Positions 899-53,183 of a DNA stretch of 64,000 bases are shown piece by piece. Where the stretch lies: contig JBHPFV010000002.1 in assembly GCA_042571705.1 (NCBI GenBank), forward strand, positions 46,822 to 110,821. The letters run 5' to 3'. Under the pieces are notes generated by a model that was given only the letters and a program-made list of their open reading frames with translations, made no database searches and was not told where the DNA came from. The stretch is from Candidatus Omnitrophota bacterium. Lineage in GTDB: Bacteria; Omnitrophota; Gorgyraeia; JAFGHF01. The translations under genes were made by a program, and so were the position numbers. The first letter of the stretch is position 1, and every line of letters starts with the position of its first letter.

Positions 899-2090
899 AT
901 TTAGAGAGCAGCTTGCTGATATATTTGTTTTCGGTAAATTTTTCCGTTTGCCAAGAAGCAGCGATTTGCTTTTTATTGGTCGGCCAAAGCTGGATAAAAT
1001 TCTCCCAGCCTGAGATTGGCCCCTCCCGCCTGACCCAGGGCGCATTGGGTAAATACTGATAAATTCCGTCGGGATAAATCCCCCCGGCCACGGCCTTATA
1101 GGTCCAATAAGTCCAGTGAAAACCGCATTTTTTAAATGCGGCCAAGAGATCCTCCAAGAATCTTAATTCCCCATAATATTTTGGCGAACGGTAATTGATA
1201 CCGAATTCACCAACATAAATCGGCACCTGCCACTTTTGCGCTAACTGTTGATAACCGCTGATGACCTGTTGGATTTTTTGCCGGTTCCAGTATTGGCCGT
1301 CAATATATCCGGGATACCTTAAGTGCGGCTGGAAGTTAAAGGTAAAGTTAATCGGAAGATAAACATGGATACTATAGGCTGTGTTTTTGTCTTTGGGCCG
1401 GCCTAAAGGTCTTAATTGCTGGCCATAATGGTTGGCCTCCAAAAATAAGATATGCTTCTGGTCTACTTTTCTGATCTCTTTTGTCACCTGTTGATAAAGC
1501 CGGAGCAAAACTTTATGGTCTTTGATTACGGCTTCATTTAAGACATCATACCCGGCAATAGTCGGTTCATCTTTGTAGCGCGCGGCAATCTCACGCCAGA
1601 CCTTAAAATATAACTCCCGGTTTCTCTTTTCATTCCAGAATAATGCCCGGCCCTCAGAGTCGCTATGCCAATCCGGGTTCTGTGCCCCGGGGGCGGCGTG
1701 CAAATCTAAGATCAGCCAAATCCTTAATTTTCGGCACCAGCTGATTAGGCGATCCAGATAATTCCAGGCCCGCTCTTGCGCAACCAAGCGATAATTAAAC
1801 GGCACCCGGATACAATTAGCGCCCAGATTTTTTATGCGCTTAATATCGGAGGCAGTGATGTAATTTTGGCGGAACAGCTGCTTGAAGTTGGCTAATTCTT
1901 TTTTCCCGTTTACCCGCGCAAAATCTTGTTTTAAAAGATGCGCGGCGAAATTTCGCCCGTGCAAGATATATCCTTCCATCATCAACCAGCAGCCCAAATT
2001 TACTCCGCGCAAAAAGACCGGGCGACCATTTTGTTCAATGATCTGCGTACCCTGGACTCTCAACCAAGATAACTGATCAGCCAATTGCAT
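888..2090 (-). CDS. Glycoside hydrolase family 5 (cellulase-like) enzyme
   Basis: GH5 hallmarks: GVNLGCWL.., ..ANCIRVPF.., ..LILDLHAAPG.., catalytic LNEAV. The first ATG is MQLADQ at 2090. The track's longer 2168 start is a TTG that would overlap ksgA by 92 nt. Confidence 0.7.
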   Translation of the reverse strand: MQLADQLSWLRVQGTQIIEQNGRPVFLRGVNLGCWLMMEGYILHGRNFAAHLLKQDFARVNGKKELANFKQLFRQNYITASDIKRIKNLGANCIRVPFNYRLVAQERAWNYLDRLISWCRKLRIWLILDLHAAPGAQNPDWHSDSEGRALFWNEKRNRELYFKVWREIAARYKDEPTIAGYDVLNEAVIKDHKVLLRLYQQVTKEIRKVDQKHILFLEANHYGQQLRPLGRPKDKNTAYSIHVYLPINFTFNFQPHLRYPGYIDGQYWNRQKIQQVISGYQQLAQKWQVPIYVGEFGINYRSPKYYGELRFLEDLLAAFKKCGFHWTYWTYKAVAGGIYPDGIYQYLPNAPWVRREGPISGWENFIQLWPTNKKQIAASWQTEKFTENKYISKLLSKYAH

Positions 2091-2931
2091 ACCCCCTTTT
2101 GTAAAAACAATGCTCAAGCTCAGCAAAGCCCTCAACAGCAACAGTCTCCGGCCGTTGCTGAGGATCAATGCCGGCCTGTTTTAAGGCGCAAGCTATTTGT
2201 TCTTTTTCAATATCAACTAATCGATGAGCCAAAGAATTGGCCATGGTTTTGCGGCGCTGCTGAAAACAGGCCTGGACAATCTTAAAGAACTGCTCCTGCT
2301 GATGGACTTGCACCCGCGGCTGTGGTAGCACTGCTAAACGGACAAACACCGAATCTACCCGAGGTTGGGGATAAAAGGCCTTCTTAGGGATAGCAAAAAG
2401 AATTTTGGCATCGGTAAAGTATTGGACCATGATACTCAAAGAAGAATAATCCTTGGTCCTGGTTTCAGCTACCAGGCGCTTTCCGACTTCACGCTGCACA
2501 GTAATAAATATTTCAGCAATATTCTTTCTCTGCTCCTCTAATAAACATCCGATAATCGGGGTGCTGATATAATAGGGAAGATTCCCGATTACTTTTAGGT
2601 CCGCCTCAGTAATCTTATTGATGTTGACATCTAAAATATCCGCGCGCATAAACTTAAGGCTGCTATATTTGTTTAGATTGCGTTGTAATATTTTGAATAA
2701 CCCTTTGTCCTTCTCCACCGCGATGACCTCTTGAGCCTGTTTAGCTAAATCTTCGGTCAGCGCGCCTAAGCCCGGGCCAATTTCCAGGACCTGATCGGTC
2801 GGGTTGATCCGGGTGGCTTGAATCAGTTTTTTCTGGATGTTCTGATCAACCAGAAAATTCTGCCCGCGGTACTTGCTGATCCCGATCCGCTCCCGCCTCA
2901 ACACCTCTTTTATCTCTTTAATTGTCAGCAT
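2077..2931 (-). CDS. rsmA: 16S rRNA (adenine1518/1519-N6)-dimethyltransferase RsmA/KsgA
   Basis: NFLVDQNIQKK.., SAM motif LEIGPGLGALTEDL, VIAVEKD. Length 284 aa. Confidence 0.9.
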   Translation of the reverse strand: MLTIKEIKEVLRRERIGISKYRGQNFLVDQNIQKKLIQATRINPTDQVLEIGPGLGALTEDLAKQAQEVIAVEKDKGLFKILQRNLNKYSSLKFMRADILDVNINKITEADLKVIGNLPYYISTPIIGCLLEEQRKNIAEIFITVQREVGKRLVAETRTKDYSSLSIMVQYFTDAKILFAIPKKAFYPQPRVDSVFVRLAVLPQPRVQVHQQEQFFKIVQACFQQRRKTMANSLAHRLVDIEKEQIACALKQAGIDPQQRPETVAVEGFAELEHCFYKRGYAIG

Positions 2932-3225
2932 CTCTTCTCTTCTTCTCTATCTATACAGGGCTCGGGGTCCTGTCTCGGGTGCGCTTTCGGTGCTCGTTCC
3001 CCTAAAGGGGTGGGCCTTGCCCTCCTTTAGACAAGGGCCCTAGATTACAGTCCCTGGCTGCCGAAGGCAGACAAGAAACTTATACTATCTGTGTTTTCTC
3101 TCACTGCGCGCCGAAAGCTAGCACCCTCGCCACCCCTCGCCAACATCGATGATTGCACATGCGAGCTGTTTTTGCATTTAAATGCTGGTGGGCGGCTAAG
3201 CGGCCATCAGCAATTTATTGGCAAT

Positions 3226-3410
3226 AGAGTTGTGAGCATTTACAGTGAGCAAATGGCGGAACTGACCGAGAACTCACCCAATTATATTCTTACGAGGGAA
3301 TTCCGCCAAATTTGCGAACTGCCTCTCCTTAAATTCACAGTTTAGCAGGCCACGAGCGAAGCGAGTGGTAAATGCCACAACTCGGCAAAAAATTGCAGGC
3401 CGCGAGACGC
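3226..3410. repeat. Copy 1 of a ~185-nt structured intergenic element with terminal inverted repeats (second copy at 52976-53160)
   Basis: A 47-nt block (3226-3272) and a 43-nt block (3281-3323) are identical to the 52976.. copy, with about 85-90% identity overall. Internal stem GCAAATGGCGGAA / TTCCGCCAAATTTGC encloses a variable loop. Second hairpin CGAGTGG-taaatg-CCACaaCTCG. Flanking inverted repeats cagcaatttattggc / gccaaaaaattgcag (read on + strand). Confidence 0.8.
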
Positions 3411-3480
3411 ACACCAGCATTCAACAAAGAACAAAAACACCGAGCAAAAGTCAGTCCGCGTGAGTCAGACCCTGAGTCAG

Positions 3481-5202
3481 TCATTTGTCTCGCTTTTGCT
3501 TGATTGCCCGGAGCAGTTTTTCCAAGGGCAGGGTGTTGATCAGGTCTTGCTTCTGCAGCCATCCCCGCCTGGCAACCGTAACCCCTAACGGCATAAATTG
3601 TAAATGCTCAAGGGTATGGGCGTCAGTGTTAATCGACATCCGCACCCCTAATTCCTGCGCCCGGCGACAGTTAACATCGATCAAATCCAATCGATCAGGA
3701 AAGGCGCTGATTTCCATAAACGTATTAGTCTCAGCGGCCTTTTTCAATACCGCTTCGATATCTAAAGCATAAGGCTCACGCTGAGCTAACAGCCTGCCCG
3801 ATGGATGGGCGATGATGCTGACATATTTATTTTCCATTGCCGAGATCATCCGCTGAGTCAGCTGTTGCCGGCTTTGCTTAAAACCAGTGTGGATAGCGGC
3901 GACGACGATATCCAGCTGCTTTAATACTCTATCCGGGTAGTCTAAGCTGCCGTCTGACTTGATATCCACCTCACTGCCGGATAAAATTCGAAAACCTTTT
4001 AATTTTTTATTTATTTTATGAATAAGTTCGCTCTGTTTCTTTAAACGATCAATACTTAAGCCATTGGCAATTTTTATTGATTGCGAGTGATCGCAAATTG
4101 CAATATACTGATAGCCCATGGCCGCCGCGGACCGAACCAGATCTTCAATCTTGACCGTGCCGTCACTCCAGCGAGAATGCAGATGTAAATCCCCCTTGAT
4201 TGATGAGAACTCGACTAGTTTGGGTAAGGCACTATTCTGTGCCGCCTCAATTTCACCCCTGTCTTCACGCAGCTCCGCGGGTATCGGGTCGAGTTTAAGC
4301 TGCCTGTATATTTCCTGTTCAGTCTTTCCGGCTAGCCATTTTTTATTTTTAAATACTCCATATTCATTAATCTTTAAGCCTTGCTTGATCGCTAACTGAC
4401 GCAGTTTGATATTGTGCTGTGTAGACCCGGTAAAATATAATAATGCCGCCCCAAAGCTTTTCGGCTCGACCACACGCAGATCGACCTGGATATCATTCTG
4501 GCTCAAAATGCTGGATTTTGTCGCGCCTTTTGCTAACACCCGTTTTACTTGTGGCAACTGGGTAAAAACATCCATAACTTTTTTTGGCCGCACAGATGTA
4601 ATCAGGATATCAATGTCTCTGACCGTTTCTTTCTTGCGCCTTAATGATCCGGCCGGCTCAATTTGCTTGATTTCCTTTAGTTTTGCTAAGGCGCCGGTAA
4701 ACTCATCCGCTATGGCCTTAGCCTGCGCCAAAGGCATTCTTTCTTTAGCTTTTTTAACTAAGGCGATCCCCCGGCGAATATTCTCTTCTGTTTTTTCTTT
4801 AAACCCGGGCAAATCCCTGATCTGATGCTTCGACACCGCTTGTTCTAAGTGTTTTAGACTTCTGACGTTTAATTTGTCATATAGGGTCTTGGCGGTCTTA
4901 GGTCCTACTCCGGGCACAGACATCAAAATAGTCAGCCCTTCCGGTATATTGTCGCAAAGCTCTTGATAAAATTTAAGCTTGCCGGTGTTGACAATCTCCT
5001 TTATTTTCTCGGCTAAGTCCTGACCGATTCCGGGGATTTGCTCCAGCGCCTCTTTGGCTGCTAAGTCTTCCACGGCTTGAGGCAGCGACTCAATATTTTG
5101 TGCAGCCTTCAGATAGGCCCGAATGCGAAACGGATTTTGATCCTGAATCTCTAAAATCTCAGCGATTTGACGAAAGATCTGGGCTACTTCCTTATTTTTC
5201 AT
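3481..5202 (-). CDS. polX: DNA polymerase X family protein with C-terminal PHP phosphoesterase domain
   Basis: Pol-beta-like N-terminus (HhH, GIGxxxA), 573 aa, C-terminal PHP histidine motifs (HxHS..., DAH). Matches the bacterial PolX architecture. Confidence 0.85.
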   Translation of the reverse strand: MKNKEVAQIFRQIAEILEIQDQNPFRIRAYLKAAQNIESLPQAVEDLAAKEALEQIPGIGQDLAEKIKEIVNTGKLKFYQELCDNIPEGLTILMSVPGVGPKTAKTLYDKLNVRSLKHLEQAVSKHQIRDLPGFKEKTEENIRRGIALVKKAKERMPLAQAKAIADEFTGALAKLKEIKQIEPAGSLRRKKETVRDIDILITSVRPKKVMDVFTQLPQVKRVLAKGATKSSILSQNDIQVDLRVVEPKSFGAALLYFTGSTQHNIKLRQLAIKQGLKINEYGVFKNKKWLAGKTEQEIYRQLKLDPIPAELREDRGEIEAAQNSALPKLVEFSSIKGDLHLHSRWSDGTVKIEDLVRSAAAMGYQYIAICDHSQSIKIANGLSIDRLKKQSELIHKINKKLKGFRILSGSEVDIKSDGSLDYPDRVLKQLDIVVAAIHTGFKQSRQQLTQRMISAMENKYVSIIAHPSGRLLAQREPYALDIEAVLKKAAETNTFMEISAFPDRLDLIDVNCRRAQELGVRMSINTDAHTLEHLQFMPLGVTVARRGWLQKQDLINTLPLEKLLRAIKQKRDK

Positions 5203-5204
5203 TT

Positions 5205-6266
5205 CTAAAATTTATTTAAGCGCTGCAGCGCTTTAAACTTTTGCACTTGGCCGACTTTTGCCTCGGCCACGGCCTGTTTAAGAATCTGAATAGTGCGGTC
5301 GTAACCGCTCCTGTTGACCGGATAAGGATGGCCGTCTTTGCCACCGTGAGCAAAACTAAAACGTACCGGATCGCGAAAAGAAGGACTCAAGCCCCAAATC
5401 AACTCAGAAATTAACGCTAGCGACCGGATAGTCTTGGGCCCCACTCCGGGTGTGCCTAATAATTGCTCAAAGTCTTGCGGCTGACGCAGATAAGTCTTCA
5501 AAAGTATCCGTTTTAAATTCTCCGGCCGGATGTCGTCCAAAGAAACCGGATGTCGCGAGCTGAGCCGCAACTTATTTAATCCGGCTAATACCTTTTCCGG
5601 TTTAAGCGCGCTCAAATCGGCGCTACGCCTGCGGCAGCTTTGACTCTCCTGGGCGACCATATTCAAGGTCTTGTGTTTTTGGTCGCAACAAACCGCATGA
5701 TGCGGCTCACAGACAAAATCGTTGAGCGTCTCACTCAGCCAATGGTAGCGTCGAGCATATCGAGATTGGCGATTCATCCCTTGCTGGACCACCGACCACT
5801 TTCCCTGCTTGGTAAAAATAAACATATGCTGGTAAAGAGTGTAGCCGTCTTGTAAGGCGGCATTATCTACCTTGGCTGACATTCTACTGGCATAAATTAG
5901 TTTATCGGGAACAACATCAATTAAACGGGCCTGGCCAATCCGATCAATTTCTTCCGGAGTCTTACGTGAAGTGGCCCCCTTGCCCCCGGCAAAGTAAAGC
6001 CCTAACTCCCGGCCAGTGTCTTGTAGTCCCGCTTTTAACGCTGCGCAAACCGTAGTAGTCAGGCCGCTGGAGTGCCAATCAAAACCTAAACAGCAGCCAA
6101 AGGCCTGAAACCAAAATGGGTCACTGATCCGGTTCAGGAACTCATCGGCGCCGTGTTCTTTGACAATTGCGTAAACAATCTCCCGAGCCAGGCCGCTCAT
6201 CCGGCTGAACAGCCAACGCGGGGCCTGCCCATAATGCAATGGTAAATTAGCAATACCGGTGCGCAT
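5205..6266 (-). CDS. DUF763 family protein with helix-hairpin-helix motif
   Basis: N-terminal PLHYGQAPRWLF signature recalled for DUF763. Internal HhH LLGTPGVGPKTIRSLALI. Located immediately downstream of polX. Confidence 0.5.
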   Translation of the reverse strand: MRTGIANLPLHYGQAPRWLFSRMSGLAREIVYAIVKEHGADEFLNRISDPFWFQAFGCCLGFDWHSSGLTTTVCAALKAGLQDTGRELGLYFAGGKGATSRKTPEEIDRIGQARLIDVVPDKLIYASRMSAKVDNAALQDGYTLYQHMFIFTKQGKWSVVQQGMNRQSRYARRYHWLSETLNDFVCEPHHAVCCDQKHKTLNMVAQESQSCRRRSADLSALKPEKVLAGLNKLRLSSRHPVSLDDIRPENLKRILLKTYLRQPQDFEQLLGTPGVGPKTIRSLALISELIWGLSPSFRDPVRFSFAHGGKDGHPYPVNRSGYDRTIQILKQAVAEAKVGQVQKFKALQRLNKF

Positions 6267-6278
6267 AATCTAAAATAT

Positions 6279-7412
6279 TCAGAGTAACCCGGATACGATT
6301 TTCTCTACATAACCGCCAATAAATGCAGCCGAAGTAAGGCCTGGAGAGTCAATGCCGATAAGATTCACAAAACCCGGAAAACCATTATCTTCTTCATGGC
6401 AAATCACAAAGTCTCTAACATCCTCATTTGGGCCTTGCAACTTTGCTCTAATGCCGGCGGTATCAGCGGTTAGATCATCAACCTCAATAAAAGGCAAGAA
6501 CCTGCCCGCATCTTGAGCAAATTTAGCTCGCTGAGTAAGGTCGATATCATAATTCACTGCGTCTTTTTCAATGTAGCTGGCGTCCGGGCCTAAACGCAAG
6601 CCCTGGTCTAAATCAGGCGTAGCGTGAATCCCTAAAGACACACCGCTGGAATCCGGAACCGGGTAAATTAAACGTTTAACCAAAGCGCTTTTGGCGTTAC
6701 TGAGACGAAAGTATTGACCCTTGCAATACTTGAGTAAATAGCGCTTCTTTTTTATATCTATACCTACCGAATCAGCCAGGCTCGCGCTGTTGAGACCGGC
6801 GCAATTAATTAGGATCTTGGTAGAAAAGCTAAAATCAGAACCGTCGGCATCACGCACAAAGACTGTGTAGCCTTGTTTATCCTTGCTAAGCCGGGCAGCC
6901 TCAGTCCGCCAGGCGAATTCCACCCCCGCCGCTTGAGCTTGTTGAAAAAAATACCGCATCAGGTTATGTGAATCAACTATCCCGGTTTCCGGAGAATAGA
7001 GCGCAGCCTGGGCCTCTACAGCAGGCTCTAATCTTTTAATCGCCTGGCGATCCAGAATTTCCAGGCCGGACACACCGTTATTTTGCCCGTTTTGCTGCAA
7101 CTGCTCTAATTGCCTGATTTCTGCAGCTGTTGAGGCCACAATTAATTTGCCTAATTTCTTGTAAGCAATATTATTGTTCTGACAAATTTCGTAGGTCAGG
7201 CGATTACCCTCTACGCAAGCCAAGGCCTTTAAGCTGTTGGGCGGATAGTAAATCCCGGCATGGATGACTTCACTGTTTCTACTTGAGGCCTCCTGACCGA
7301 AGCCTGCAAGCGTCTCCAAAACATAAATTGAGCGATTTTTTCCAGCCAGCTTATCGGCCACGGCCAAGCCAATGATTCCCGCTCCGATAATGGTAATGTC
7401 AATACTTTCCAT
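6279..7412 (-). CDS. lhgO: FAD-dependent oxidoreductase, L-2-hydroxyglutarate oxidase (LhgO/YgaF)-like
   Basis: GxGxxG FAD motif ITIIGAGIIGLA. EVIHAGIYYPPNSLKA and CKGQYFRL...LIYPVPD match the LhgO family. Confidence 0.7.
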   Translation of the reverse strand: MESIDITIIGAGIIGLAVADKLAGKNRSIYVLETLAGFGQEASSRNSEVIHAGIYYPPNSLKALACVEGNRLTYEICQNNNIAYKKLGKLIVASTAAEIRQLEQLQQNGQNNGVSGLEILDRQAIKRLEPAVEAQAALYSPETGIVDSHNLMRYFFQQAQAAGVEFAWRTEAARLSKDKQGYTVFVRDADGSDFSFSTKILINCAGLNSASLADSVGIDIKKKRYLLKYCKGQYFRLSNAKSALVKRLIYPVPDSSGVSLGIHATPDLDQGLRLGPDASYIEKDAVNYDIDLTQRAKFAQDAGRFLPFIEVDDLTADTAGIRAKLQGPNEDVRDFVICHEEDNGFPGFVNLIGIDSPGLTSAAFIGGYVEKIVSGLL

Positions 7413-7469
7413 AAACTTTTCTGGGCAGGCCAGCCTGCCATCTCATAAGCTAGGACGGGGCACACCCGC

Positions 7470-8099
7470 CTACCCTGCTATAAGCTGGGCGGGCAGACCA
7501 ATATCGGCTACAGTCAATTTGCCAACATATGCTTTAGCCGGTGAGCAGGTCAACCCCTTTTTTACCAAACTAAAAGTAACAGTGTGTTTGGCCTTTATCG
7601 CTACTCCACAGACACGGCCTGAGGTCGCATCAATCCCCGAAGGGACATCTAAGGAAAGGGTCGGTTTTGCCGCCGCATTAATAGAACTGATCACTTCGGC
7701 GTAAGGCTGGCGCAGATTACTTTTTAACCCAATGCCAAAAATGGCATCAACCACTAAGTCGCACTTTTTTAATGTACTCTTTAAAGCAGCTGCATTATTA
7801 GCAACAACATTCAGCCCTTGCTTACGCAGAATTTGATAATTGATCTTGGCTGCATTCGGCATTTTTCTACTGCGGCCAAAGAAGAAGACCTTAACTTTTA
7901 GCCCCCAATTGATTAGGTGTCGGGCGCAGACGAAACCATCGCCGCCATTATTCCCGGGCCCGCAAAAAATTACTACTTTAGTCTGACCGGCTCTTAACAT
8001 CTTTAGTGCGCAAACAGCGCTCACCCGGCCGGCGTTTTCCATCAAGACTACGGCCGGAATCCCAAATCTGGCCACAGCAATCCGGTCTATTTGCTGCAT
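7470..8099 (-). CDS. nnrE: NAD(P)H-hydrate epimerase (stand-alone YjeF N-terminal domain)
   Basis: VLMENAGR..., CGPGNNGGDGFV motif. Only 209 aa, with no C-terminal dehydratase domain. Confidence 0.75.
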   Translation of the reverse strand: MQQIDRIAVARFGIPAVVLMENAGRVSAVCALKMLRAGQTKVVIFCGPGNNGGDGFVCARHLINWGLKVKVFFFGRSRKMPNAAKINYQILRKQGLNVVANNAAALKSTLKKCDLVVDAIFGIGLKSNLRQPYAEVISSINAAAKPTLSLDVPSGIDATSGRVCGVAIKAKHTVTFSLVKKGLTCSPAKAYVGKLTVADIGLPAQLIAG

Positions 8100-8142
8100 T
8101 CTCTTCGCTGATACGGTTTTAATTTTAACTTTTTTATTCCTT

Positions 8143-8931
8143 TTAAGCGAATTTAGAGTTGAAATCGGAAGGGATGCTGTATTGACGTTCGGTTAATTTA
8201 GCGGACAAGATCCTGCGGATATTAAAAGTGCGCAGAGCTACACGCAAATGACAAAAACCCACTATTCTTCCCAATTCTAAAGCATAAATATCGATTTGGC
8301 GGCGGCGTCTTCCGTCTTGGGCATTGGTTGAAGAATATTCAATTTCCAGTGTCCGGTGTTCCCGGAAGGCCACTTCGATTAGCCCGCTGACTGTTTGACC
8401 TTGGGCCCAGCTGACCGGAATCGTCTCCAGCCTTAAAGCCCGACGATAAAGCAGATGACCTCGGGTCTTCCCGTATTCATAAAGTTCGCGCGTAACTTGC
8501 ACGTCCTGTTGGCAATATTTAATCAGCTGATCAATCTCCCCGGCGCGGAAATATTTGAGCGCATCCAGGCCGGTGGCGCTTTTTCCGTGATTAAGCGTGG
8601 CCTGGGCAAGGGCGTTTAGCCCCAAGCGGTGGCCTAAGTAGCTCTCGACTTCAGTGAAAATATCCAATTTTTTAAGTTGAGTCAGATCAAAATTAAAGTA
8701 TGGCTGTAAGACCGGAAAGTCAAACTTAATAATATTAAAACCAATAATGAATTCCGCTGCCTTGAGATACGGCTCCAGCAGGTTTAAGTCTTTTTCTAGA
8801 AAGTTCTTGTACTGGCCTTCTGAATATGAGTAAATCCCCACCACCGAAACGCCCATCAAATCTAAGCGCCGGTTTTCCACTTGGCCAAAGCTCTTTTTAG
8901 TCTCTAAATCCAAGACGATTTTTCCAGACAT
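8143..8931 (-). CDS. RNase H-like (PolB-exo/YprB-type) 3'-5' exonuclease fused to a C-terminal WYL domain
   Basis: N-terminus IVLDLETK ... GFNIIKFDFPVL ... YCQQDV (DEDD-like exonuclease fold). C-terminus LEIEYSS..RRRRQIDIYALELGRIVGFCHLRVALRTFNIRRIL fits the WYL consensus (..Y..R.v.P..l...WYL.a.C.lR...R.FrldRI). Confidence 0.6.
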   Translation of the reverse strand: MSGKIVLDLETKKSFGQVENRRLDLMGVSVVGIYSYSEGQYKNFLEKDLNLLEPYLKAAEFIIGFNIIKFDFPVLQPYFNFDLTQLKKLDIFTEVESYLGHRLGLNALAQATLNHGKSATGLDALKYFRAGEIDQLIKYCQQDVQVTRELYEYGKTRGHLLYRRALRLETIPVSWAQGQTVSGLIEVAFREHRTLEIEYSSTNAQDGRRRRQIDIYALELGRIVGFCHLRVALRTFNIRRILSAKLTERQYSIPSDFNSKFA

Positions 8932-11702: not shown

Positions 11703-12965
11703 TTATTCTTTTTCTCTCCAAATCTTTGCTCCCAAACCGGAAAGCTTCTCTTCCATTTTTTCATAGCCACGGTCTAAATGATAAACTCTTGAAATCTCAG
11801 TCTTGCCTTGGGCCACCAAAGCGGCTAAAACCAGGCTGGCCGAGGCCCGCAGGTCTGAGGCCATCACCGGAGCGCCGCTTAATTTGGCCGTCCCCTTGAT
11901 AATTGCGCTTGAGCCTTCTTTCATAATTTGGGCGCCCATCCGGCTTAATTCGCTAATGTGCATGAACCGCTCGGGATAAATCTTTTCCGTAATCACACTA
12001 ATGCCGGATGAGACCGACATCAAAGCCATCATTTGAGCCTGCAGGTCGGTGGGAAAGCCCGGAAAAGGCAAGGTAGTAATATCCACGGGCTTGAGTCTTT
12101 TGGACGACTTAACATGTATGGCGTCACCTATATTTTTAATCACTACACCGACATCCCTTAATTTATCAATTAATGCCCCCAAATGCCCGATGCATACGCC
12201 CTTAATAGTGATCTCACCCTTAGTCATCGCGCAGGCTAAAATATAGGTCCCGGCCTCAATGCGGTCGTTAATGATTTGATGTTCGACGCCGTGTAGTTTC
12301 TGTACGCCCTCGATCTCAATTGTGTGCGTGTTCTGGCCCTTAATCTTAGCTCCCATCTTGACTAAGAAATTAGCCAAATCAACAATCTCCGGCTCACAGG
12401 CCGCATTCTCAATGATCGTTTTTCCCGGTGTCAGCGTGGCCGCCATGATAACATTAGCAGTAGCCAAAACTGATGAACCAAACGGCCCGCCTAGATAAAT
12501 CCTGGCTCCTTTTAACTTTTTTCCGTCCGCAATAACATATCCATGCTCAATCTTTATCTTCGCGCCCAAGCCACTTAAACCTTTCAGGTGTAAATCAATT
12601 GGTCGTGGTCCGATTACGCAGCCTCCGGGCAAGGATACCCGGGCTAACTTCTGCTTTGCTAAAAGTGGTCCGAGCACACAGATTGAGGCCCGCATCGTAC
12701 TGACCAATTTGTAGTCGGCGGTAATGTTGTTATATTTAGTGGGCTCAACGATAACCCGGCTATCTTGAAACTGGGTCTTGACCCCTAAGCTACGTAAAAT
12801 CTTAACCATCGTCTGAACATCGCGCAGATTAGGCACATTTTTAATAACACACAACTCATCAGTGAGCAATGTCGCCGCTAAAATAGGTAAAGCCGCATTT
12901 TTAGCGCCACTAATCTGGACCAGGCCGTTAAGCTTTTTTCCTCCTTCAATAATTAGTTTGTCCAT
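11703..12965 (-). CDS. murA: UDP-N-acetylglucosamine 1-carboxyvinyltransferase MurA
   Basis: [29 protein letters not shown]. 420 aa. Confidence 0.9.
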   Translation of the reverse strand: MDKLIIEGGKKLNGLVQISGAKNAALPILAATLLTDELCVIKNVPNLRDVQTMVKILRSLGVKTQFQDSRVIVEPTKYNNITADYKLVSTMRASICVLGPLLAKQKLARVSLPGGCVIGPRPIDLHLKGLSGLGAKIKIEHGYVIADGKKLKGARIYLGGPFGSSVLATANVIMAATLTPGKTIIENAACEPEIVDLANFLVKMGAKIKGQNTHTIEIEGVQKLHGVEHQIINDRIEAGTYILACAMTKGEITIKGVCIGHLGALIDKLRDVGVVIKNIGDAIHVKSSKRLKPVDITTLPFPGFPTDLQAQMMALMSVSSGISVITEKIYPERFMHISELSRMGAQIMKEGSSAIIKGTAKLSGAPVMASDLRASASLVLAALVAQGKTEISRVYHLDRGYEKMEEKLSGLGAKIWREKE

Positions 12966-13861
12966 AGCTCCTGCTTCTTTTGCGCAATCAATACTCTATA
13001 TTTTTGATTGTAGTCCTGCGTTATTGAAGAAAACATCAGCCCGGGGTGTTTTGTTAAAATCTCAATGATCGGCTGTTTTTGCTCTTCGCCAATCTCACAA
13101 ACCAAAACACCTTGGGTCTGTAAATACTCAGAAGCCTGGGCTATAATCATCCGGTAATAGTCCAGCCCGTCTGGACCGCCGTCAATAGCCAGCTTAGGCT
13201 CATAATTTAATTCGCGAGGCAGCTGCGAAATCTGCGCTGTTTTGATATAAGGCGGGTTGCTGACGATTAAAGAGAACTGCCGATCTTTCTTAAAGGCATT
13301 GAATAAGTAGCTTTTAACTAAAGAAATGTTGACCCGGTTTAAAAGGGCGTTCTCCTGGCTCAATTTTAAAGCAGAATCAGATATATCGCAAGCAAAAATT
13401 TTGGCATTACTCAAATACTTCGCGCAACTTATGGCAATATTCCCACTGCCACAACCTAGGTCTAGGATTTTCGGGGCTAGACCTGTGTCTAGGATTTTCG
13501 GGGCTAGACCTGTGTCTAGGATTTTACTAAAACTATCTTTCAGCCGAAGCACAGTTTCTACCAAAACTTCAGTTTCCGGCCGGGGAATAAACACGCCCGG
13601 TCTGACCTTAAATGGCAGCCCCATGAATTCTGTAGTTCCCAGTAGATATTGTAATGGCAAACCATCCGCCCGCTCAGACAATAGCCCCCAAAAACGCCTT
13701 AGTTTTGGGGCGTAAACCTGAACATTATCAAGATAGAGCTCAATCCGGGCGCAACCCAGCACATGCGCAAGAAAGAGTTCGCTTTCTCCTTGAGCATTGG
13801 CAATGCCGCTTTGCGACAAGAAATTATATCCTGCTTTAAGCAATCCTAAGCGGTTATTCAT
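12953..13861 (-). CDS. prmC: Release factor glutamine N5-methyltransferase PrmC (HemK)
   Basis: SAM motif [14 protein letters not shown] and NPPY catalytic motif (IVSNPPYI). Contains an in-frame duplicated nonapeptide ILDTGLAPK x2. Confidence 0.85.
13461..13514. repeat. Perfect 27-nt x2 tandem direct repeat inside prmC (a partial third unit follows)
   Basis: tctaggattttcggggctagacctgtg is repeated exactly twice, then tctaggatttt. Each unit contains the short inverted repeat ggtctag/ctagacc. It encodes [18 protein letters not shown] immediately before the SAM motif. Confidence 0.85.
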
Positions 13862-51625: not shown

Positions 51626-51631
51626 TAGGGT

Positions 51632-51670
51632 ACACTTCTCCGATTGATTTTAGGACACTTCTCCGATTGA
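51632..51670. promoter_or_regulatory. Two copies of a 16-nt direct repeat (acacttctccgattga), 23 nt apart, immediately upstream of the leuD start
   Basis: Exact 16/16 identity. On the gene strand each copy contains GGAGAAG (SD-like). It lies at the boundary between leuD and the low-GC insert. Confidence 0.4.
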
Positions 51671-51690
51671 GTTAAGAACCGGTCTTAGTT

Positions 51691-52119
51691 TTATGTGACA
51701 CGGTGGTTTGAGTTGCTGGATGTTTTTAATTTCTTAATGAGATTTATATAAATCGTCTTCAAATAATAGACGCCTACCAGAAAAGCTCCAACAAATAGCA
51801 AAGATTGAAATGAATTCAATCCTCTTGCATATGTATATTTAATCCAACCTCTATGTGCTTGTGCATGTGCCTCGAATAACGATTTAGCTACTTTTGATTC
51901 TCGCTCCGTCTTTGGGAAGAACTCACTGTGCATAGAAGTAAATTGCTCAGTAAAAGAATCATGGATATCTTTTACTTTTATGGCGGTCAAAAATATTGAT
52001 GTTATAGCTCCTATGATTAAAAGCATACCAATCCATAAGACAATCTTATCGCTTTTCTTGATTTCAGAATTTAGGATACGTTTTTCGATTTTGGTCAATT
52101 CCATATTCTTTGCTCTCAT
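51691..52119 (-). CDS. Small membrane protein (2 predicted TM helices), unknown family, within the low-GC insert
   Basis: Hydrophobic segments IVLWIGMLLIIGAITSIFLTAI and LLFVGAFLVGVYYL. AT-rich, Lys/Asn-rich codon usage unlike the neighbouring genes. Confidence 0.5.
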   Translation of the reverse strand: MRAKNMELTKIEKRILNSEIKKSDKIVLWIGMLLIIGAITSIFLTAIKVKDIHDSFTEQFTSMHSEFFPKTERESKVAKSLFEAHAQAHRGWIKYTYARGLNSFQSLLFVGAFLVGVYYLKTIYINLIKKLKTSSNSNHRVT

Positions 52120-52257: not shown

Positions 52258-52866
52258 TTACGGAAGCAATGAGGAAACATTTGCATCTTGATTAAGAATT
52301 GATGAATAACGTATGCAGAGTTTATCTAATCCTTCAACGGCTCGATGGATTTCATGCCATTTTATTTTTTTCTTCCCTTTTAATTTTCTTTGACTATGAG
52401 CAAAAATGGTATCAACCGTAGTGCCAATGCGTTTAGTATTTTTTTCAAACTTATTCAAGTCTGCAATGACATTTTTTTTAGGTAAGGCGTCGTTGCCGGC
52501 GCCAACGAGTGAATTAAAATCTTCCTGACCAAATCTTTTTATATGTTTAGGATACCGCCTGACATAGCTTCTTCTTGTAATAATTTGCGGGTTTTTGGCA
52601 ATAGATTGCATAAGGTGAAATAATGAGTAAGTCCTATTATCTTTATCAATAAGTCGGCGAATTCCCATTGCAACATGAGTTGCATAGTTCCTTTTTACCC
52701 AGTTAATAACAAGAGTGTTGTTTATGTATTTCTGGGAAGTATTTATGATTTCCATTGATTGACGAAAAATATAATTATCAATGAGGACACCGGTAACCAT
52801 TTTATTTATTTTTTTCATCCGGTATCGCCATTTAGCTCTGGTTTTGGAATAGTCTTTTTTATGCAT
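52258..52866 (-). CDS. Hypothetical 202-aa basic protein with a HEPN-like R-N-x3-H motif (candidate Abi/toxin-type RNase), within the low-GC insert
   Basis: ..WVKRNYATHVAMGIRRL.. matches the R[NHD]x3-5H HEPN signature. About 35% GC versus about 48% in the flanking genes. No other recognisable domain. Confidence 0.4.
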   Translation of the reverse strand: MHKKDYSKTRAKWRYRMKKINKMVTGVLIDNYIFRQSMEIINTSQKYINNTLVINWVKRNYATHVAMGIRRLIDKDNRTYSLFHLMQSIAKNPQIITRRSYVRRYPKHIKRFGQEDFNSLVGAGNDALPKKNVIADLNKFEKNTKRIGTTVDTIFAHSQRKLKGKKKIKWHEIHRAVEGLDKLCIRYSSILNQDANVSSLLP

Positions 52867-52975
52867 TTATATTTTGTCTAACAATTAATATAGGAAATTC
52901 GTATTTTGTGGTATTACTCTCGTTTGACCTTGCGAGGTGTCTTTGCAGAGCGAGCATTAGAATTTTTTCGGCAAA

Positions 52976-53160
52976 AGAGTTGTGAGCATTTACAGTGAGC
53001 AAATGGCGGAACTGACCGAGAAACACCAGATTATATTCTTACGAGGGAATTCCGCCAAATTTGCGAACTGCCCCTCCTTAAAGTAACCTTTAGCCGGCCA
53101 CGAGCGCAGCGAGTGGTAAATGCCACAACTCGGCGAAAAAATTCAGCGAGCGAGCAAAGA
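52976..53160. repeat. Copy 2 of the ~185-nt structured element (see 3226-3410)
   Basis: Same conserved blocks and hairpins as copy 1. Bounded by the inverted repeats gaattttttcg (52960-52970) and cgaaaaaattc (53135-53145). It lies 24 nt after the leuC stop and about 110 nt before the HEPN-like ORF. Confidence 0.8.
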
Positions 53161-53183
53161 TACCGAAGCAAGGTCAAAGAACC

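Follow-up and report, generated by a model that had tools for sequence, protein, structure and literature searches.

The closest described counterparts of the element considered here are palindromic intergenic repeats. ERIC/IRU elements of Enterobacteria are imperfect palindromes of ~127 bp which, as generally known, are intergenic, multi-copy and non-coding, with a conserved core at their center, no known transposase, longer variants created by fixed internal insertions, a compensated hairpin, and placement in either orientation relative to genes. REP units are only 20-40 nucleotides (nt) long, carry a conserved 5' tetranucleotide and have a cognate RAYT, and together with BIMEs and REPINs they form hairpins and multi-copy, palindromic intergenic mosaics under single-strand constraint. 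The Correia elements of Neisseria (NEMIS/CREE) are small palindromic repeats that form a hairpin when transcribed, are bounded by conserved 26-bp terminal inverted repeats with a TA target duplication, and carry at their ends promoter hexamers reading into the neighboring gene. Here we describe an element present twice in a 64,000-nt stretch of a Candidatus Omnitrophota contig (JBHPFV010000002.1, positions 46,822 to 110,821; hereafter the window, in whose own numbering its coordinates are given), which probably belongs to a new Omnitrophota family of long-hairpin repeats that are modular and interspersed between genes, analogous to ERIC, REPIN or Correia elements. The family is apparently undescribed, with no description found by keyword search of the literature; its kind is familiar and represents no new principle. 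The element is unusual in its length, in an invariant center accompanied by free outer helices, in its exchangeable apical modules, and in its repeated G-A loop motifs.

The two copies are direct repeats with 88% identity over ~208 nt (3199-3406 versus 52949-53154; BLAST E ~1e-69), in line with the ~87% reported in an earlier note on this DNA. Its identical blocks of 47 nt (3226-3272 = 52976-53022) and 43 nt (3281-3323 = 53030-53072) are exact in length, and a third identical block of 27 nt lies at 3360-3386 in copy 1 coordinates. The first two blocks enclose a variable segment, ctcaccca in copy 1 (8 nt) and acaccag in copy 2 (7 nt), for which the note had correctly described a one-base length difference, and as it proposed they pair with each other (GCAAATGGCGGAA and TTCCGCCAAATTTGC). 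The spacers holding the copies are indeed the two largest intergenic gaps of the window, at 549 and 317 nt, the next largest being 240 nt. The proposed size of ~185 nt proved too small, as the rods extend over 3167-3439 and 52923-53178, and what had been taken for terminal inverted repeats of 11-16 nt are arms that pair over their whole length. Relative to copy 2, copy 1 features an extra segment in both arms that is complementary between them. A full covariance-model scan with filters off found no third copy in the 64-kb window. The window is itself extremely compact and one-directional: all 64 open reading frames (ORFs) of at least 80 amino acids (aa) are on the minus strand, and the spacers are mostly overlaps or shorter than 30 nt.

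Folding of the + strand of 3199-3410 yields -75.5 kcal/mol (z = -5.5, RNAfold), and family members are single-strand rods of 180-330 nt with six or more helices, between which lie conserved, purine-rich loops (YUGA/GAA loops and tandem G-A pairs). From the outside inward, the common scaffold features a variable outer helix, a loop with UGA opposite GAA, a helix GGCRC/GYGCC that in the window subfamily reads GCGAGC/GCGAGC with tandem G-A pairs, an A/U-rich helix, the helices GYCCGC/GCGGRC and UUACRG/CYGUAA, and a YGA/GAR loop. In most members it is capped by an invariant apical module A (GCAAAU/AUUUGC, GGCGGAA/UUCCGCC, a CUGA/GAA loop, CC-GA-G/C-GA-GG and a variable loop), which is unchanged in ~25 family members and whose halves served as the scan pattern. 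On the + strand, the whole rod-shaped hairpin of copy 1 (3167-3439, from folding) comprises an outer frame in which TGTTTTTG (3167-3174) pairs with CAAAAACA (3432-3439), an inner rod at 3182-3420 closed by ATGCTGGTG/CACCAGCAT, and apical module A at 3248-3315 (AGCAAATGGCGGAACTGACC, the variable loop and GAATTCCGCCAAATTTGC). The variable apical-loop segment occupies 3273-3280, which on the minus strand is just downstream of a -10-like box. The corresponding + strand hairpin of copy 2 (52923-53178) is closed by TTTGACCTTGC/GCAAGGTCAAA, with apical module A at 52998-53064. Away from the invariant center, the outermost helices vary from copy to copy (e.g., TATAGTTAGAGG, GTCTTTTTCTGGCAGG and AAATTTTTGCTGCC).

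The window subfamily consists of the two window copies (win1 and win2), L004/L029, L007, L011, L025 and the unbranched L008; its variable apical segment differs in all six subfamily members, and the neighboring ATTATATTCTTACGAG is conserved. In the branched members, a branch in the 3' strand generates a three-way junction and contains a CCYCUCCUUAA stretch, a variable hairpin, and a conserved mini-hairpin N-CGA-GCGAAGC-GAG-N'; it is not present in unbranched members such as L008 and the second subfamily. In copy 1 the branch lies in the 3' strand of helix P5 (3322-3367, +) and is made up of CCTCTCCTTAA (3322-3333), a variable small hairpin, and the conserved local hairpin CAC-GA-GCGAAGC-GA-GTG (3351-3367), while that of copy 2 (53071-53115, +) comprises CCCCTCCTTAA (53071-53082), a small hairpin, and the mini-hairpin CAC-GA-GCGCAGC-GA-GTG (53099-53115). 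Covariation is seen in the pairs that close the mini-hairpin (CAC/GTG, CTC/GAG, CCC/GGG). A different local hairpin, CGAGTGG..CCAC..CTCG, had been drawn in the earlier note and is rejected: its bases form the 3' arm, whose long-range partner is GAGTTGTGAGCATTTAC, and relatives preserve this pairing by compensation (GAGTTGTG/CACAACTC, GACTTGTG/CACAAGTC and GACCTGTG/CACAGGTC). As a separate observation, the first stretch of the branch in either copy resembles on the + strand the anti-Shine-Dalgarno tail of 16S rRNA, and its minus-strand reading is a strong Shine-Dalgarno sequence (UAAGGAGG) that no start codon follows at the usual distance.

Support for this fold comes from the covariation of its stems, a check that the earlier note had called for and that returned a strong signal. 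Across 21 members aligned to the covariance model, standard pairs are found in 97.4% of cells and both sides change in 28 of 51 pairs (93 cells); none of 500 shuffles matched any covariation measure, and when the 3' partner is slid by 1-3 columns, 29-45% of cells pair and no more than 9 pairs change on both sides. This alignment is fitted to the model and hence favors structure, but single-sequence folds independently give the same pairings. Among six window-type sequences aligned with MAFFT alone, compensatory types were likewise found in 25 of 89 pairs, including the long-range helix of the 3' arm. The family is non-coding, as the earlier note had argued for the window copies: indels are not multiples of three and break the frame, and stems change by compensation. 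Within the consensus helices, G-U/U-G combinations account for 43 cells in 18 columns versus 7 cells in 6 columns for A-C/C-A, and single mismatches are mostly purine-purine. The excess of G-U over A-C on the strand reading AGCAAAUGGCGGAACUGACC shows that one single strand, of RNA or of single-stranded DNA, is constrained, and that strand is the + strand of the window. The covariance-model score of copy 1 is 58.6 bits on the + strand and 6.6 bits on the minus strand, and the core of copy 2 scores 57.4 bits on the + strand. Strand-biased covariation of this sort fits RNA, and a single-stranded DNA hairpin would fit equally.

What had been presented as a two-copy element is instead one subfamily of a widespread Omnitrophota repeat family, and the search for further copies advocated in the earlier note recovered ~30 beyond the two of the window, nearly all of them in Candidatus Omnitrophota metagenome-assembled genomes or metagenomes. 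A scan of one genome per species with an exact pattern for the two halves of the apical stem identified 8 loci, with Candidatus Omnitrophota or Omnitrophica in the title of 6; a second pattern returned 28 loci from JGI metagenomes, of which ~20 are true members and 8 are chance matches inside coding DNA. With a covariance model built from 15 unbranched members, diverged copies also came to light, of which L014 carries four within its 10.6 kb and L006 and L034 carry two each. The PolX of the window matches an NCBI protein of a Candidatus Omnitrophota bacterium at 100% identity, and three relatives with 72% PolX identity were devoid of the element over 57.5 kb. Several copies per genome lie between unrelated housekeeping genes, with patchy presence among relatives. 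The neighbors include radical SAM, BamD-like, LptE, HolA, MurJ, UvrC, RF-1, Maf and MnmE genes, as well as FabG, PurB, M48 peptidase, PolX, KsgA and LeuC; ~60 annotated neighboring ORFs contain no recurrent transposase, integrase, reverse transcriptase, nuclease or other partner, and no transposase stands beside the copies at ~25 loci examined. Rfam 15 at gathering thresholds gave no match in the window and none overlapping the element in 20 related loci, consistent with the earlier lack of a match to known RNAs; permissive Rfam scans produced only chance-level matches to eukaryotic families, that to MIR2646 merely reflecting a long hairpin. A phage or plasmid origin is rejected, as nothing similar to the element was found in viral contigs, phage records or plasmid records.

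The family is modular. With the scaffold kept, apical module A can be deleted or swapped for an unrelated hairpin B (AAGUUUUUAUACYGUCAAGACUACCUUCRGUAUAAAAAAUG); branches insert at fixed points of the rod, outer helices are exchangeable, and truncated copies exist, as do solo arms such as that in L004. Copies within one locus share the same orientation (2/2 in the window, 3/3 full copies in L014, 2/2 in L006 and 2/2 in L034), and orientation relative to neighboring genes is mixed over the family and independent of them in the second subfamily. At L014, the four copies are spread over 1696-8317 amid radical SAM, BamD-like, LptE, HolA, MurJ, UvrC and RF-1 genes, one of them with the alternative module B and another without an apex.

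Copy 2 is located between the stop of leuC (53184) and the start of a HEPN_AbiU2 gene (52866), in the order leuC, element, HEPN_AbiU2, 142-aa ORF, leuD, leuB, asd, truA. The HEPN_AbiU2 protein (202 aa, 52258-52866, minus strand, Pfam) and the translated 142-aa ORF with its two hydrophobic segments (51691-52119, minus strand) have no PADLOC match, and look like an accessory, toxin-like cassette that arrived with or next to copy 2. An empty site is available in L042 (75% LeuC identity, same surrounding synteny), where leuC and leuD are 76 nt apart with neither element nor cassette; copy 2 is thus part of an inserted block that separates leuC and leuD, and the arrangement seen in the window recurs in a near-identical strain (99.8% over 12.3 kb). 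An occupied site is provided by L043 (80% LeuC identity), where an element arm directly follows leuC and the contig ends inside the element. This arm is ~80% identical to the window element whereas the third codon positions of leuC are only 46% identical, which points to constraint or concerted evolution. The contigs of two further relatives end 5-45 nt past the leuC stop, and the sequence just 3' of leuC appears to be a hot spot for repeats at which assemblies break; altogether, three independent assemblies (L041, L043 and L044) end 5-90 nt after the leuC stop, the last 90 nt of L043 being the element arm. At the far edge of the insert, immediately upstream of the leuD start, we also observed a tandem direct repeat at ~51631-51676, in which ACACTTCTCCGATTGA occurs twice with a 24-nt period.

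At copy 1, synteny with three relatives stops exactly at the element, between 3481 and 2931: the upstream order RF-1 ... PilZ ... YjeF_N, DAO, PolX is common to all, and PolX is followed in the relatives by NUDIX-HypF_C-MatE and in the window by the element, ksgA, a GH5 cellulase and an LPG-synthase-like gene. With synteny broken and NUDIX after PolX in these relatives, an exact empty site for copy 1 was not obtained, and L023, which has a PolX orthologue in a different context, was set aside as a comparison. Between copy 1 and the ksgA start lies a second palindromic module (2956-3143), different from the element, in which the blocks 2956-3004 and 3104-3143 pair (CCGAAAG/CTTTCGG, GCACCC/GGGTGC). 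These blocks recur beside the element in L029/L004, with 93% and ~85% identity to L029.

Both window copies carry a sigma-70-like promoter pattern on the minus strand, as the earlier note had seen: TTGGCG (3309-3304), 17 nt and TATAAT (3286-3281) toward ksgA in copy 1 (3281-3309), and TTGGCG (53058-53053), 17 nt and TATAAT (53035-53030) toward HEPN_AbiU2 in copy 2 (53030-53058). The pattern is present in both copies facing the next gene, as described, but is restricted to the window subfamily. It agrees with the consensus at 10/12 positions in both copies, against an average of 0.4 sites in the shuffled copy 1 region, with the -35 within the invariant stem and the -10 within the apical loop. 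Six subfamily members retain both hexamers (the -10 as GATAAT in L008) and the 17-nt distance between them, within the 16-18 nt expected of sigma-70 promoters, while the adjoining loop bases downstream vary; hexamers and spacing reach 10/12 positions in both copies and in 4/6 of the subfamily members compared, and the next gene is co-directional with the pattern in 6/6 evaluable cases. Judged from sequence, a promoter in the window subfamily is plausible, and since other subfamilies have different apical loops that lack the pattern, e.g., a CCCC-GUA-GGGG hairpin, the candidate promoter is subfamily-specific.

Together, these features resemble those of ERIC: multiple copies, non-coding and intergenic location, an imperfect palindrome, and size variants generated by internal insertions, with a central conserved core, a compensated hairpin, either orientation relative to genes, and no transposase known. 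The Omnitrophota element has no sequence similarity to ERIC/IRU, is two to three times longer, has a variant branched at a three-way junction, apical modules that can be swapped and G-A loop motifs that recur along the rod, and is confined, as sampled, to Omnitrophota. Likeness to REP, BIME and REPIN lies in the hairpins, the single-strand constraint and the mosaic organization, window positions 2932-3480 holding at least two different palindromic modules. A REP/RAYT assignment is nonetheless rejected: the unit is a single rod of 180-330 nt, no conserved 5' tetranucleotide or RAYT was seen, and there is no Y1_Tnp match among the ~60 annotated neighbors. As for Correia elements, the shared traits are the palindromic repeat and promoter hexamers that read into the neighboring gene; the ends of the Omnitrophota element vary, and its promoter-like boxes are in the apical center and in one subfamily only.

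We propose a model where the element would spread or be exchanged within genomes via a trans-acting mechanism independent of fixed terminal repeats, and would then be retained because its fold, most likely at the RNA level, serves in cis for processing, stability or protein binding. In the window subfamily, the apical module might double as a near-consensus sigma-70 promoter on the opposite strand and re-start transcription past the insertion, of ksgA at copy 1 and of the HEPN_AbiU2 cassette, possibly also leuD, at copy 2. Several observations weigh against this interpretation. At the loci examined, no mobility mechanism was found, be it a target-site duplication, conserved ends, a parent element or a partner enzyme, and the empty site in L042 concerns the whole element-plus-HEPN block rather than the element alone. 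Two columns supply 23 of the 43 G-U cells, leaving ~20 versus 7 without them; a raw comparison of the strands by minimum free energy and G-U content is ambiguous, such that only the alignment-based count was used; and single-stranded DNA hairpins also tolerate G-T mismatches. Finally, the constrained + strand is antisense to every neighboring gene of the window and opposite to the proposed minus-strand promoter, so that the two roles must sit on different strands.

In the very compact genomes of Omnitrophota, an uncultivated phylum, a 250-nt non-coding unit stands out, and an element that is kept at one site despite saturated synonymous sites and occurs up to four times per 10 kb is a strong candidate for either an RNA with a function or a repeat that shapes the genome. 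The family explains assembly breaks, such as those right after leuC, and marks rearrangement and insertion junctions, and its alignment and covariance model provide a seed for an Rfam-style family. The promoter, if real, would illustrate how genes that an insertion has severed from the promoter of their operon stay expressed, and the RNA, if real, would be a new large structured RNA with repeated G-A motifs. A bolder proposal, for which we consider the prospects rather poor, is that of a new multi-copy Omnitrophota RNA class in which a G-A-loop scaffold with an exchangeable apex forms a programmable RNA-protein system, or of a novel type of mobile element that spreads through its hairpin without terminal repeats. 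In the former case, the scaffold would present 3-4 evenly spaced YUGA/GAA and tandem G-A loops for protein binding, with specificity provided by the apical module or variable loop, in an RNA-protein system without described counterpart.

Among the competing explanations, the one we take most seriously, though it is doubtful, holds that the copies are genes rather than mobile DNA and encode an independently transcribed, structured small-RNA family of ~200-330 nt, in which the rod is a protein scaffold and the apex confers paralogue specificity. The strong covariation, the bias of G-U and purine-purine mismatches to one strand, and the conservation of internal loops in helices that vary are all what such genes would produce; so are an orientation independent of neighboring genes in the second subfamily and the persistence of the element at the leuC site across species with saturated synonymous sites, in a genome so compact that long spacers are costly. 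Inspection of the flanks nevertheless revealed neither a promoter nor a terminator conserved between rods, outer helices are free to differ from one copy to the next, and no copy is found in the 57.5 kb from three relatives, while the crowding of four copies into 10.6 kb, together with solo arms and truncation, is indicative of the decay of repeat elements rather than of a gene family. The same strand-specific mismatch tolerance would also be expected of a single-stranded DNA hairpin recognized by a strand-specific enzyme, such as a transposase of the HUH/RAYT type, a priming system or, as with attC, a tyrosine recombinase, G-T being the best-tolerated mismatch in DNA too. The d(GCGAAGC) motif and tandem sheared G-A pairs are unusually stable in DNA, and both are conserved in the branch; copies within a locus share their orientation, and the nested, mosaic architecture suggests insertion into hairpins. 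We still regard this explanation as quite improbable: no HUH, RAYT or integrase gene is near any copy examined, the ends have no conserved cleavage-site motif, 180-330 nt is far longer than REP or attC sites, and across loci the copies point either way relative to gene direction, taken here as a proxy for that of replication.

The earlier note had offered a structured-RNA family or an element akin to a miniature inverted-repeat transposable element (MITE), and of this pair the multi-copy family with strong covariation stands whereas a classical MITE does not fit. Such an element would derive from an insertion sequence by deletion and be mobilized by a transposase acting on its terminal inverted repeats, with the hairpin as a by-product; short, multi-copy, intergenic palindromes at an insertion or rearrangement junction, with assemblies of relatives breaking at the copy 2 site, are in keeping with it. 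The pattern of conservation is however the reverse, with the least conserved sequence at the termini and an invariant center. The rod ends are not fixable to the base, as pairing fades outward, and the flanks inspected have no recurrent target-site duplication; the neighbors examined include no transposase or parent insertion sequence, and neither compensation along the whole rod nor conserved non-Watson-Crick loops are expected of transposase-binding ends. The classical MITE is thus rejected as very improbable. Lastly, an 84-aa ORF (3091-3345, +) overlaps copy 1 and could hint at a degraded protein-coding fragment, and chance similarity might be invoked for the pair, but the likelihood of either is negligible. 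The 1-nt length difference falls inside the repeat, copy 2 has no corresponding ORF, and ~30 homologous copies differ through paired substitutions and through indels of any length, such that the covariation pattern and frame-breaking indels refute a coding fragment; a BLAST E of ~1e-69 between the copies speaks against chance.

Other structured elements were compared with the family. Like 6S RNA and other rod-shaped bacterial RNAs, the element has a rod-like fold of ~200 nt with conserved internal loops, but it features no Rfam 6S match and no large central bubble, and occurs in many copies per genome with truncated copies and a patchy presence among relatives. Integron attC sites are 57-141-nt hairpins with outer R''/R' core sites (RYYYAAC / GTTRRRY), found at the 3' end of cassettes next to an integrase; the element, at 180-330 nt, with central conservation, housekeeping genes at its flanks, mixed orientation and no integrase seen, is not one of them. 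The hammerhead ribozyme has a catalytic core of CUGANGA ... GAAA around three stems; the element has CUGA and GAA next to helices, but inspection shows that it lacks the G8/A9 positions, and with no Rfam ribozyme match either, a hammerhead or other self-cleaving ribozyme is rejected. An intrinsic terminator, a G+C-rich hairpin with a U-run directly after it, is likewise excluded, as neither rod is followed by a T-run on either strand; terminator-like sites are found only outside the rods (e.g., 3471-3453 after PolX).

Some minor observations concern the surroundings of the copies. The terminator-like hairpin at 3453-3471 (minus strand), with a T-rich tail, directly follows the PolX stop, between PolX and copy 1, and upstream of PolX the window has DUF763 in place of a flavodoxin gene. 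The second palindromic module harbors in the window an extra hairpin-rich insert of ~100 nt between its blocks 2956-3004 and 3104-3143, and a motif resembling the 2956-3143 module is found at the contig end of L044, just after leuC. Further away, a 27-nt unit is tandemly duplicated (93% identical) at 13454-13507 within ORF 12953-13861. In L008, a PD-(D/E)XK endonuclease ORF (6616-7083) is overlapped at its start by an Rfam group I intron match (6462-6654, 58 bits), with an element copy ~260 nt away, and L002, an Omnitrophota contig that also carries two element copies, features a c-di-GMP-I riboswitch at 7216-7303 (81 bits).

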